Below the pieces are notes generated by a model. That model was not told the origin of the DNA, made no database searches, and saw only the letters and a list, made by a program, of their open reading frames with translations. DNA of 64,000 nucleotides from Amphiscolops sp. MND2022. Taxonomy: Eukaryota. Shown piece after piece: positions 14,401 through 25,814 of this stretch. Position 1 is the stretch's first letter. Every line of letters begins with the position of its first letter. Both the position numbers and the translations under genes were made by a program. Location of the stretch: NCBI GenBank assembly GCA_964187785.1, contig OZ076409.1:26600001-26664000 (forward strand). The letters run 5' to 3'.

Positions 14401-16061
14401 CAGTCGTAGTTACTGAAGTTGTGAAACACGAATGGTATGAAATTACTCTGTTTCTGTTTCACATTTATATTACACTTTTCATGTGCAGCCCCTCGATACC
14501 TACCAGTCAGATGACAATGATCTCTGACAGCTCTCCCATCTAAGGGAAGTTCACAGAACCAACAATGAGTACTATTCTTAAAATCTTCCTCATCTTCTTG
14601 AGTCATCATAATCTCTTTCTTTGTATTCTTAAAATAGAAATTCATCTTATTCTCAATCTTTATGACTTCATTAACAAACCATTCAACATTATCCTCTCCA
14701 AAGGGCGAGAGATGCCATCCAGACTGTAGAACATTATCCATCTCAGATACTATGTAAAATCCATTACACATTGGATTTTGTCTGAAAATGTTTGTGGTTT
14801 TATTACCTATGTTAGAATATTCTCTTTTATTATTACATTCGAAATCACCATAGATCCTGAAATATAGTGGGATCTTATGAAAGTGCTTCTTCCACATTAA
14901 ATGACTATCCTTGCTAACTCTGATAGCTGTGATATCTTGTTGCTTACATCTTTCAGTATGTTTCACCAAAACGTTTTCATTTGTAAAGCAACTTAGACAT
15001 CGACGACAAACAAATTTTGAATCCCTTTTTCCTAAGAATACATGAAGTTTTTTAATGAGGGCATAGTGATTTTTATATATCACCAAATCAATCACTGTTT
15101 CTGAATTGTTCTCACTAACCTCAATAGGAATCAATTTATGTTTCCACTTTTCCCCCTCTTGATAGAACTGTAACTCAAATATATTAATAGCTAGATTATT
15201 CATCTTTTCAAATTTAGAAACATCTGATGTTTTAAAAGGGAATTCCAATCCATCTCTTTTCAATTCTCTAAAATATTCTCGATAGTTTGAAACTCTATTA
15301 GGGTGAGAATTCTCACAAGGATGAAGGTGAGCTAAGATGCTCCATAGAAAACAGTACTTATCATTATTTTCAATGTTTAAAATAGCAGCGCTTCTAAGAG
15401 GTATTTTAACATAACTGCTACCATTCAGTTCAACAGTTTTATAAAAGTATATAGTCATCGATGCAATTTTACAGAATCTCCAACCACTATCTTTCATCTC
15501 CAGATTTTCAATCAATGCATTTGTTTTTCCTTCTAGATCATACTTTTCAATATCATTCCAAGTTAAACTCTGATTGACCTCCAAACTAACATACTGTTCT
15601 AACTCATCTCGAGTCTCCTTATCGAAAATAACTGAGAAGACAACTTGATATTTGAATTTATATTGCTCAATTAACCTAGCATATATTGCTGACATTTCTT
15701 TGAAGATATTATTCAGATCGAGCAATTCAATAGGGAGATCATATTTAGGTTTGACAGTTATCTTACTATTTAAGTGTTTGGGGTGGTGTTGATCAAGATT
15801 AACATCATATTGAGGTTCATATCTTTTAGAGAAGTAGTATGGATTTATCATATGTTTTGCCAACTCTTTTTCTGAGAGATTGACTTTAGCTCTCGCTAAT
15901 TGTTTTAGTGTTGGGACCGATCGCGCCCTTCGTTGTATAGGGTCTCCCGGTACAACGCCAATATTGTGTAAATGAATTTTAGATTTCTCATGTCTCGAGA
16001 AGGATGCTGTGTGAATGTGTTTATCACACACTTCACAATATTTGGTATTCGTGGTGTTCAT
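11449..16061 (-). CDS. polB: Protein-primed family B DNA polymerase (pPolB) with an intein; split into two ORFs by a 1-nt frameshift near 12161-12170
   Basis: ExoI YGDFEC, ExoII FHNFSNYD, ExoIII YLKTDV, PolA YIDANNLYG, PolB KLLNNAFYGKT, PolC YMD/TDS, then LRSKAY and KGISK. Also an EndoVII-type insert (CWFC..DHCH..H..CN), an N-terminal C2H2 finger and an OTU-like CFLWSIL..HYALI segment. Confidence 0.95.
11902..12938 (-). mobile_element. Intein with LAGLIDADG homing endonuclease inserted in pPolB motif C (YMD|TDS)
   Basis: Block A SVTGDTPI, block B VTEDHSLL, LAGLIDADG-like FVKGFFLGDG and FLIGFYAADG, block F YVYDLQTETHDF, block G IVHN followed by +1 Thr. Length 1037 nt = 346 codons minus 1 nt. 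Confidence 0.93.
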
Positions 16062-16076
16062 TTACTATATAAATTT

Positions 16077-16373
16077 TTATTCAATTGTTTTTTCTATTTT
16101 TCTCCGATTCCGTTTTGGGGGGATAGGTCGAGCTCGAGGTTGTTGTTGTTCTTCCACTACTGGTAGAACTCTAGGTTCTTGTTGTTCTTCCACTGCTGGT
16201 AGAACTCTAGGTTCTTGTTGTTCTTCCACTGCTAGTAGAACTCTGGGTTTTTGTGGGATTACACCTACATTTTTCTGTAAATGATTTTTAGACTTCAGAT
16301 GCTTTGCAAACGATGATGTGTGAACTTGTTTATCACAAGCTTCACAATATTTCCTATGATATGTTTCATCCAT
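16077..16373 (-). CDS. Small C2H2 zinc-finger protein with three 11-aa repeats and a basic tail
   Basis: YCEACDKQVHTSSFAKHLKSKNH; about three copies of PRVLPAVEEQQE; PPKRNRRK; TAAATG start. Confidence 0.75.
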   Translation of the reverse strand: MDETYHRKYCEACDKQVHTSSFAKHLKSKNHLQKNVGVIPQKPRVLLAVEEQQEPRVLPAVEEQQEPRVLPVVEEQQQPRARPIPPKRNRRKIEKTIE

Positions 16374-16404
16374 TTACTATATAAATTTTTATTCAATTGT
16401 TTTT

Positions 16405-16539
16405 TCATTTTTCTATTTTTCTCCGCTTCCGTTTTGGGGGGATATAGTCTTCATCTTCGCTCTCCGAATCATCGATAAAGTCTTCATCTGAACTATGTAG
16501 AGATTCATCCTCAGAAACCTCACCTTCACTATCGCTCAT
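16405..16539 (-). CDS. 44-aa acidic micro-protein with an NLS-like tail (not in the ORF track)
   Basis: Manual translation MSDSEGEVSEDESLHSSDEDFIDDSESEDEDYIPPKRKRRKIEK*; TAAATG start like its neighbours; fills the intergenic gap. Confidence 0.65.
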   Translation of the reverse strand: MSDSEGEVSEDESLHSSDEDFIDDSESEDEDYIPPKRKRRKIEK

Positions 16540-16563
16540 TTATAAACAAGAAAACTTCTTTCC

Positions 16564-23577: not shown

Positions 23578-24615
23578 TTAAATCTTGATGATTTGAATTG
23601 TGAATGTGAGTGTCTCGTTGTTGAATTCTACTGGGTTGTGGTTGGAGTCTTCAAGAAAAAATTGTATCTGGTCTAATCTTGTTTTGTTTATCTTTTTGTA
23701 CAAAACAGTAGTCGGATTATTTATAATTTTATATCCCGGAGGAGCACTAAGATTAAAACTAAACAGGATTTGTTCTCTAATTCCATTAACAATTGAACCA
23801 TCTACGCAGTCGCACTTCAGGTGAACTTTATCGGTGGTCGTTATCATAACTGGTTTCTCTGAAGTGTGAGTTCCGGGTGGGTAATCCTTGTTTGTAAATC
23901 CCAAAAGAATGTTAAGTCTGGAGTTAAAATGAATAGAGTTTGAGGTTGTTAAAACTGATTTCATTGATATTGTGTCGGGTATTATATCAATTTTAAAATC
24001 ATAATCACTTTCATGAATTTTTTGTTTAATTGCATTATTTATATCAACTAGTTCATAAACTCCTGGTGTTAGTTCTATTTCAATAGAATCATCTTGAATT
24101 TCAAATTCAGGAATAGTTATGGGGTGCTTGGTGTGTTGTTGGTTATTAGCCTCAACTAATTCCTTTAAATCATTAAAATCTTTTTTTGCAAGTTTATTGT
24201 TTTCAGAATAACTATTGGTTATAATTGTACTAACTTTTTCTACAAATTCATTATACGCCTCCTGATTTTCTAAGTTATAGGATTCATACAAAGATTTTAT
24301 ATTCTTTACTAATACAATGTCAACTCCATGTTCTATGAGTTGTTCGTCTGTTAGAAGTATTTTAAGTTTGTTATTGCTGTTAGTGATATTATAAACTGTA
24401 TTATAGACTTCTAAACTTGTTACTCCCATCATCCAATTTTCATTTAGTTGGAGAGGAACATCGAATGAAAAAGATTCTTTTTGTTTAGTCATTTTAAATT
24501 CTAGAGTTTCTTGTGGTTTCGAATGAGTATTTTCAACAATTTCTTGATTAGATTTAGCAATATTCAGCAAAAGAGATTCCTTTTTATCATAAGTTACAAA
24601 GTTTGATAGATCCAT
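23578..24615 (-). CDS. Minor capsid (penton-like single jelly-roll) protein
   Basis: WMMGVTSLEVYNTVYNI, IELTPGVYEL..IN, VHLKCDCVDGSIVNG, PPGYKI..P..VLYKKI and IQFFLED...VEFNNETLTF resemble Polinton mCPs. Confidence 0.8.
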   Translation of the reverse strand: MDLSNFVTYDKKESLLLNIAKSNQEIVENTHSKPQETLEFKMTKQKESFSFDVPLQLNENWMMGVTSLEVYNTVYNITNSNNKLKILLTDEQLIEHGVDIVLVKNIKSLYESYNLENQEAYNEFVEKVSTIITNSYSENNKLAKKDFNDLKELVEANNQQHTKHPITIPEFEIQDDSIEIELTPGVYELVDINNAIKQKIHESDYDFKIDIIPDTISMKSVLTTSNSIHFNSRLNILLGFTNKDYPPGTHTSEKPVMITTTDKVHLKCDCVDGSIVNGIREQILFSFNLSAPPGYKIINNPTTVLYKKINKTRLDQIQFFLEDSNHNPVEFNNETLTFTIQIIKI

Positions 24616-24618
24616 TTA

Positions 24619-24786
24619 TTATGCATGAAAGTGTTTAAATCCACTAGCAGCTATGTTATTTATAAATTCTTGTCTATCTTTTGATAATTTTTTCTCATTC
24701 GGAATACCATTCGTATTATAATTTTTTGAATGATCTTTTGGATATATGACTTTAAACTGAGCTGAATAAGTATTAATTTTCTTCAT
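24619..24786 (-). CDS. 55-aa hypothetical protein (not in the ORF track)
   Basis: Manual translation MKKINTYSAQFKVIYPK...GFKHFHA*; TAAATG start; fills the gap between protease and mCP. Confidence 0.5.
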   Translation of the reverse strand: MKKINTYSAQFKVIYPKDHSKNYNTNGIPNEKKLSKDRQEFINNIAASGFKHFHA

Positions 24787-24789
24787 TTA

Positions 24790-25200
24790 TTAATGACAAA
24801 ATGTCTGATAGTATAAACTTAAAACTGCATTTTTAAAGCCTATACTTTGTGTAAGATATAAAACATATAAACAATACGCTGCGCAATAGCCATCATTTTT
24901 TTGAATTTGATATTCTGAGTATTGACCAATATTAAGATAGTTGAGTATGTTTATTGGAGGTGGGCAGCCATATGAATCGAAGTAATATTCCTTAATAAAC
25001 ATGACCCAGTGTGTTCCCACTGAGGGGTGTAAATTTACAATCCCTGAATCAGTTGTAAATTTATCATCTCTCATGTACACTTTACAGGAATCATGAATAT
25101 GTCTATTTATTATGTCTAGTATACCTTTTATTTTTACATTAGAAGTTGCTTCGTTTTTTAAACCATATTTCTTGACAAATTCTTTGAATGTTAAATTCAT
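24790..25200 (-). CDS. Adenain-like cysteine maturation protease
   Basis: GTHWV (His), YFDSYG (Asp), QIQ....YCAAYC (Gln/Cys). Confidence 0.9.
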   Translation of the reverse strand: MNLTFKEFVKKYGLKNEATSNVKIKGILDIINRHIHDSCKVYMRDDKFTTDSGIVNLHPSVGTHWVMFIKEYYFDSYGCPPPINILNYLNIGQYSEYQIQKNDGYCAAYCLYVLYLTQSIGFKNAVLSLYYQTFCH

Positions 25201-25814
25201 TCTTTATTTAATTGGACATGAAAATGTCTATGACTAAAAAATACAAGACACATAGGCATGCGCAATGGTAAACCTACACTGATAATCACAGACTACATGT
25301 TTTAAATTTGAATAGTATTATCAACGGGCGTCTCGTGTTTGTTTTGAGCCGGCACATCATGAAGTGAAACGCGACTATAATACTGACTCTTTTTTCGAAT
25401 CCACACGAAAACATTCAGTAACTAGATAAAAGAGTATTACAAATGTTCCAATTAAAGGGGGTGTCTTTCTTCCACAGCAACAGAACCAAAAAGTCAGTCG
25501 TTATATGTTTTCCCGAATAATACAGAAAATAGTCAAAAGATACAAATAAAATGATTATATGCAACACAGTATTGTGTGCTGAAAATGGCAACCTTTATTT
25601 GGTGAACAAAAAACATAAAATTCGATTGTCTTTTTTCATCAGTATTCTTCCACCTTAGTAGATTTATTTAATTCTGTACAGTTATTCTAGAAAAAACTGA
25701 AAATTTGAATATATTTTTTCCGGTGTATTTTATACATTATACATGATTATACACAATATTATGATATGACCGCCAACCTGCGACTATTACCATGGTAAGA
25801 TGGTAAGTCCTATC

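Follow-up and report, generated by a model that had tools for sequence, protein, structure and literature searches.

Which RNA polymerase transcribes a Polinton whose genes nearly all begin with the same six letters, TAAATG? The question is raised by a provirus in a 64,000-nt stretch of the genome of Amphiscolops sp. MND2022 (assembly GCA_964187785.1, contig OZ076409.1, positions 26,600,001 to 26,664,000 of the forward strand; hereafter the window, whose coordinates are used throughout). A preliminary description had listed TAAATG, the signature of poxvirus late promoters, at 13 of 15 gene starts in the interval 16059–25213 and had proposed that a helper large DNA virus transcribes these genes, as happens in virophages. 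The interval does lie inside a Polinton, the full extent of which is larger: the provirus occupies 11047–27201 (16,155 nt, 32% GC) and has the termini AGTAGT...ACTACT. It carries the features by which Polintons/Mavericks are recognised, namely a pPolB polymerase, an rve integrase, a double jelly-roll capsid protein, terminal inverted repeats, and a 6-bp target-site duplication. We describe here a two-part signal at the gene starts of this element and argue that a poxvirus-like helper probably reads it.

TAAATG at the gene starts of the element

At all 13 listed starts TAA directly precedes the ATG, and at the two remaining starts (19873 and 25200) TAAAT is found 4 and 5 nt before the ATG, as the preliminary description had it. 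The enrichment check against non-start ATGs that it had called for gave 13 of 15 genes versus 10 of 590 other ATGs on both strands (Fisher test, P = 6e-19). AT richness is ruled out as the cause: TAA-ATG occurs at none of the 143 other ATGs whose upstream DNA is at least 80% AT, the probability of at least 13 hits in 15 is about 1e-14 under a null model built from the genes' own upstream composition (chance of TAA 0.05–0.06), and a polinton-like contig from IMG/VR with 22% GC has the motif at 2 of 19 starts. Coupling of stop and start codons is likewise ruled out, TAA being the stop codon of the upstream gene at one of the 12 tandem junctions checked (17065). At the head-to-head pair 20745(–)/21435(+) the motif stands on both genes. 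Nor is host translation context the cause, as TAA-ATG was found at 0 of 15 host starts (3 histones, 7 actins, and 5 actin-related genes); five of the seven host actins use CAAA-ATG.

A second part of the signal upstream of TAAATG

The window element belongs to a group of Polintons that we call lineage A (its sampling is given below). The 46 dereplicated lineage-A promoters with TAAATG show a peak of T at positions –14 to –10 from the A of ATG with a maximum at –13 (0.85 of promoters); this position lies 10 nt before the first letter of TAAAT. The frequency of T at –13 is 0.85 in the family of the window element and 0.82 in the other lineage-A families. Within the window, 11 of the 13 genes have T at this position, and the stretch from –14 to –10, picked after viewing the position table, is 69% T, compared with 30% in the DNA beyond it and 29% at the corresponding offset from 44 internal TAAAT sites.

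In vaccinia late promoters TAAAT(G) lies on the start codon, and the 10th nucleotide upstream is a conserved T with further Ts around it (PMC11980589). A T-containing core 5–7 bp from TAAAT has also been described for late promoters (PMC5294985). The T peak was found before this description of the vaccinia T was known to the analysis. In sequence, the element shows both hallmarks of such a promoter: a TAAAT(G) that includes the ATG and, 10 nt before it, a T that is part of a T-run. A weaker T peak is seen at about –23, one helical turn above the peak at –13, in promoters of lineage A and of lineage B, described next.

Conservation of the signal among Polinton lineages

Lineage A was sampled as the window plus 19 further copies, selected from two capsid searches to cover 78–100% capsid identity; several of these copies have a rearranged gene order. 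Of the 236 starts that could be anchored by homology in these 20 copies, 204 have TAAATG, and 231 have TAAAT at the ATG or no more than 16 nt from it. Since the copies are related, these counts are not independent; after dereplication, TAAATG is present in 46 of 56 promoters. In places the ATG shifts by a few nucleotides while TAAAT stays put, as expected of a transcription initiator. Twelve copies have the integrase gene and a second ATPase gene head to head, with 14–35 nt between the two ATGs, and both genes of the pair usually carry the motif. Across the sample it stands at 20/20 integrase, 20/20 capsid, and 11/12 second-ATPase starts, and it also precedes genes that are present in only some families.

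Other Polintons of the same genome were reached by a Pfam pPolB search (93 matches), from which 11 elements were fetched, five assigned to lineage B and six to lineage C. Compared with the window element, lineage-B capsids are 41–43% and integrases 39–43% identical, and lineage-B polymerases have no match to those of lineage A at an E-value of 0.01. In the four lineage-B copies with both ends, 34 of 62 open reading frames (ORFs) of at least 100 amino acids (aa) start with TAAATG, many of the remaining ORFs being pieces of broken genes; a fifth, partial copy outside this count shows the same pattern. T is the majority base at –13 in 15 of 20 lineage-B promoter families (background 0.34, P = 2e-4), these promoters having been selected by their TAA start and not by homology. 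At locus L165 (4742–5521 and 8168–9160), TAAATG starts are seen at two lineage-B genes, one EndoVII/HNH-like (phrog_1035, E = 2e-21) and the other with fibre-like repeats. At another locus (L171–L173) a lineage-B Polinton is nested within the polymerase gene of a lineage-A element.

The six lineage-C elements, co-resident in this genome and of 40–42% GC, have TAAATG at 0 of 77 ORF starts, which rules out a general Polinton trait. Five of their polymerases are 29–36% identical to those of lineage A, and the three putative capsids compared barely match those of A or B. Because lineage B, with an unrelated polymerase, has the signal, and lineage C, with polymerases related to those of A, has none, the signal tracks the capsid clade and not the polymerase. 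In a quick tree of 39 rows, from which the lineage-C rows were left out, A and B capsids fall in one clade (Shimodaira–Hasegawa approximate likelihood-ratio test, SH-aLRT, 100) together with six database proteins from other samples and other hosts (P0121, P0124, P0125, P0127, P0131, and P0138). Scans of viral contigs in public collections gave one distant locus, as did a metagenome scan (L143). We conclude that the two-part signal is under long-term constraint and is confined to one capsid clade.

A possible early promoter class

For vaccinia early promoters, an A-rich stretch interrupted by TG has been described (PMC11980589). When an A-rich stretch broken by TG was searched for within 70 nt upstream of starts, this early-type core was found at 14/20 polymerase genes, 5/5 genes for a 65-aa protein, 3/5 genes for a 98-aa protein, and 8/18 putative protease genes, compared with 2/188 other starts. 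In lineage B the core is retained before the homolog of the 65-aa gene, and a comparable stretch precedes the polymerase, which is unrelated to that of lineage A. The pattern was defined once the promoters had been viewed and comes from few independent promoters, and the window's own polymerase promoter has no strict match to it. An early promoter class beside the late one is thus put forward as a possible lead.

The polymerase intein

The preliminary description had seen in a giant-virus-type intein a further argument for a helper. The intein itself is real: it is full-length, has a homing-endonuclease domain, and sits at the motif C site of the polymerase, and in the window copy the polymerase frame is broken within it. 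It occurs in 2 of the 20 lineage-A copies, both from the window's subfamily (2/5), so that of Polinton copies with 98% identity some have it and others lack it; it is also found in a database cluster with 136 members. Its patchy distribution among near-identical copies may reflect homing from copy to copy. Few inteins are known from animal chromosomes. Endonuclease inserts of Polinton polymerases have been suggested to derive from intein invasions (PMC11161782).

Beyond close relatives, the best matches of the intein are in other Polinton polymerases (43–45%) and in RNA-primed family B polymerases (up to 44%). A quick tree with a midpoint root only, made from 71 inteins cut by pattern from 121 proteins, places seven pPolB inteins in one group (support 99) among the inteins of RNA-primed polymerases. 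When four of these RNA-primed polymerases were compared with solved structures, three matched Pol delta best, one matched a 1206-aa polymerase that we take to be the African swine fever virus enzyme, and none matched a poxvirus polymerase best. We read the intein as a trace that shows old contact with a giant-virus gene pool and not the identity of a helper. As an argument for the helper it is weak, being old and absent from 18 of 20 copies.

Which polymerase reads the signal

We consider it probable that the two-part signal serves as a promoter and is recognised by the RNA polymerase that a poxvirus-like helper brings into the same cell, which would make the element a helper-dependent hyperparasite. 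The promoter part of the earlier proposal has gained from the T at the vaccinia position and from a signal that is found in two deep lineages and in rearranged gene orders, and that is missing from host genes and from lineage C; the helper itself, the silence of integrated copies, and their reactivation are still inferred. No RNA polymerase was recognised among the 16 ORFs of the element in a library profile search. In the mechanism that we propose, the late machinery of the helper would start transcription in the AAA, and slippage would add a 5′ poly(A) leader. Such a leader would take the unfavourable T at –3 out of the mRNA and would permit genes to be packed with gaps of 0–35 nt. Early-type cores before the polymerase and two small genes could set up a cascade from early to late expression. 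The element would itself supply both the capsid for its progeny and the rve integrase that inserts them into host chromosomes, and the integrated copies would remain silent until the next helper infection.

Several observations weigh against this interpretation. A capsid search of the host assembly (1.07 Gb, with actins of invertebrate type) returned 2,909 first-look candidates (identity was 88–100% for every one of the 102 that were scored), and a second capsid query returned 2,628; some 2,600–2,900 candidates, with copies that are 98–99% identical, imply that integration into the germline is very frequent, something more readily imagined if no helper is needed. Coding CpG is depleted in three copies (z of –6.7, –5.1, and –3.1; host –1.5), which suggests a long stay in methylated nuclear DNA. 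The poxvirus early terminator TTTTTNT is not significantly avoided (8 occurrences, 11.9 expected). The four tested relatives of the intein are not poxvirus-like, and the early-type core does not single out poxviruses, because the core before the 65-aa gene contains AAAATTGA, a mimivirus early motif. TAAAT(G) with an upstream T may also be shared by other large DNA viruses of marine organisms or invertebrates.

The search for a helper in the assembly belongs on the same side. VLTF-3, the capsid protein of nucleocytoplasmic large DNA viruses (NCLDVs), and poxvirus D13 were unmatched, a weak negative in that the controls also gave no signal. PolB gave 13 matches at four loci, two of which were translated and proved Pol zeta- and epsilon-like; the other two, split by introns, were taken as host enzymes. 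RNA polymerase matches lay at three loci that read as what are presumably host Pol I, II, and III. Because an exogenous helper is not expected in the assembly, this search neither supports nor refutes one. Some of these host loci (L129, L134, L151–L152) had features of their own: the Pol zeta- and epsilon-like genes are intronless open frames of 1,876–1,996 aa, and the gene for the second-largest subunit of Pol III has its 5′ part duplicated 2.6 kb upstream. Two further measures were set aside. The strand bias of TTTTTNT is explained by codon content, and non-avoidance of AATAAA is uninformative as a test of cytoplasmic life (29 versus 27.6 expected in the element), because two host genes show no avoidance of it either (8 versus 5.5).

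An alternative that we regard as unlikely keeps the helper and changes its identity: the promoters would be read by the polymerase of another large DNA virus, asfar-, irido-, or mimivirus-like or of an unknown lineage, with a late promoter that resembles that of poxviruses. The mimivirus motif before the 65-aa gene fits this alternative, and so does the intein pool, which lies in RNA-primed polymerases matching Pol delta (3/4) or the presumed African swine fever virus enzyme (1/4). However, the inteins of Polinton polymerases group in a single old clade, so that this one need not stem from the present helper. Iridovirus promoters use AAAAT/TAAAT (PMC5294985), which also fits. Yet in the excerpts of PMC11980589 and PMC5294985 poxviruses alone are credited with TAAAT(G) on the ATG plus a T 10 nt before it, and the late motifs of asfarviruses, mimiviruses, and the Cafeteria virus differ.

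Somewhat less likely again is transcription by host RNA polymerase II, with TAAATG acting as an element-specific initiator that yields very short leaders, or arising where the AATAAA-like poly(A) signal of one gene runs into the start codon of the following one. Ahead of the 13 window ATGs stand the hexamers AATAAA (8), AGTAAA (2), TATAAA (2), and ATTAAA (1), all of which we take to be poly(A)-signal variants, and the very high copy number and the CpG loss fit a nuclear life. Yet the motif is locked to the ATG and occurs at head-to-head and first genes, which have no tandem gene upstream, while the three genes that no tandem gene follows lack AATAAA/ATTAAA within 70 nt of their ends. Host polymerase II would also have to accommodate the lack of TAA-ATG in 15 host starts and in the 77 ORFs of other Polintons in the same nucleus, and it leaves the T at –13 unexplained.

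Finally, we regard it as improbable that the motif is a leftover from an ancestor that depended on a poxvirus and has lost its role as a viral promoter in copies that now spread as transposons. The assembly yielded no helper, and genes are broken in many copies, but the motif is intact at 20/20 capsid and 20/20 integrase starts while neighbouring bases and proteins have diverged, and it precedes genes found only in some families, both of which imply continuing selection.

Comparison with known systems

The element resembles animal Polintons/Mavericks (adintoviruses; Polintoviricetes) in its 15–20-kb size class, terminal repeats, 6-bp duplication, pPolB, rve integrase, double jelly-roll capsid, and ATPase; it differs from them in its gene-by-gene promoters of poxvirus type and in the full intein of some polymerases. 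Exchange of polymerases between lineages has been described for nematode Polintons (PMC10748475). The excerpts of four Polinton studies (PMC8502044, PMC10748475, and preprints 10.64898/2026.06.19.733378 and 10.64898/2026.10.13.758929) contain no promoter analysis, and a search of the main texts of open full-text papers gave no report that joins TAAAT with Polinton promoters; the two papers that name both TAAAT and Polintons deal with other matters.

Polinton-like viruses have been found in entomopoxvirus occlusion bodies of moths (Barth et al. 2024, PMC11296320). They too are small double jelly-roll viruses and are proposed to be poxvirus parasites; unlike the window element, they are about 12 kb long, and those described either carry a tyrosine recombinase or show no recognisable integrase. 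The window element has an rve integrase and a very high integrated copy number, and its link to a helper is argued from promoter grammar. The words 'promoter' and 'TAAAT' do not occur in the main text of PMC11296320.

Virophages share late promoters with their helpers, and mavirus-type provirophages of the Cafeteria/CroV system, which integrate by rve and encode pPolB, do so while staying silent until infection (PMC6428243). Mavirus differs in its protist host, mimivirus-family helper, late motif of TCTA type, and virophage capsid; helper dependence is shown there and inferred here. Vaccinia late promoters likewise combine an upstream T with a TAAAT(G) that includes the start codon (PMC11980589, PMC5294985), and in the yeast cytoplasmic virus-like elements (pGKL) a TAAAN initiator gives 5′ poly(A) leaders (PMC6211774). 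Both encode their own RNA polymerase, an enzyme that was not recognised among the genes of the window element.

Gene content of the element and its surroundings

The provirus is flanked by the target-site duplication ATAGCG at 11041–11046 and 27202–27207 (both + strand). A 6-bp duplication also flanks three of four sister copies, which are 98.2–99.1% identical to the window copy. In the left terminal region (11047–11376) the terminal 34-nt motif recurs three times, inverted; the right one (27068–27201) has the terminal motif and an inverted inner copy, and over its outer 52 nt it shares 90% identity with the left end.

Genes are on the minus strand and start with TAAATG unless noted. The 5′ frame of pPolB (12108–16061; PF03175, E = 4e-14; PF14890 weak) encodes a zinc finger, an EndoVII-like insert, the polymerase motifs, and the first part of the intein; a second frame (11449–12120) encodes the end of the intein and the C-terminus of the polymerase. 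Next to it is the 98-aa zinc-finger ORF (16077–16373; early-type core at 16401–16409), a gene that, taken with its upstream DNA (16077–16400), is a separate duplicate of the polymerase promoter and N-terminal zinc finger. It is followed by a 44-aa acidic/basic ORF (16405–16539; T at –13, homolog in lineage B) and a 121-aa ORF with two CxxC pairs (16700–17065), the start of which is coupled to the upstream stop and which is longer in some copies. A role for this CxxC protein as a transcription factor is unsupported (best Atlas match 0.87; predicted local distance difference test, pLDDT, 47 in a single-sequence model). The 65-aa ORF (17066–17263) has an early-type core at 17291–17299, kept in lineage B. 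The double jelly-roll major capsid protein (17355–18584; PF21738, E = 9e-21; T-run at –14 to –10) gave a model with pLDDT 88, and fold searches match it to viral jelly-roll capsids.

Further along are a 178-aa ORF with a long hydrophobic segment (18643–19179), a 229-aa ORF with TAAAT 4 nt before its ATG (19184–19873), and the rve integrase (19894–20745; PF00665, E = 2e-12), head to head with an ATPase gene across a tandem-repeat spacer (20790–21400). Other families have the second, A32-like ATPase gene in place of the spacer; in locus L055 (6794–7975) it is head to head with the integrase and encodes an N-terminal hydrophobic segment. This second ATPase matches PF04665 at 2e-7, whereas the window's P-loop ATPase (21435–22256, plus strand; Walker motifs, T at –13), a likely packaging ATPase, has weak family matches only. 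The remaining genes are a 306-aa ORF (22231–23151), a 133-aa basic ORF (23167–23568), a 345-aa ORF without family match that we guess to be a candidate minor capsid protein (23578–24615), a 55-aa ORF (24619–24786), and a 136-aa ORF with TAAAT 5 nt before its ATG (24790–25200). The last is a putative protease without library match; its His/Asp/Gln/Cys pattern is one that we assume to be that of adenain-like maturation proteases.

Outside the provirus, about 26 near-identical units of 216 nt at 1221–6920 make up an open frame of 2126 aa on the minus strand. The array adjoins an assembly gap and apparent remains of a long terminal repeat retrotransposon (about 7560–10000).

Significance for animal Polintons

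The promoter signal bears on two questions about animal Polintons, the manner of their expression and the rarity with which virions are observed. If the promoters of one clade need a poxvirus-type polymerase, that clade would be silent unless a helper infects the cell, and Polintons with and without the signal in one genome form a natural controlled comparison. A wider reading, which we offer tentatively, as a serious possibility, is that this whole capsid clade of animal Polintons consists of germline-integrated satellites of a poxvirus-like virus yet to be discovered, and that their early and late promoters are tuned to the cascade of that helper. In their thousands, the copies would then be an inducible, heritable antiviral reservoir, the animal counterpart of the provirophages of protists, whose promoters predict the family of the helper before it has been found. 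If dependence on such a helper is true, the signal would provide a cheap sequence test of it, applicable to every animal Polinton; an unknown poxvirus-like virus would be predicted in the host, and a defence of provirophage type may be possible in an animal.

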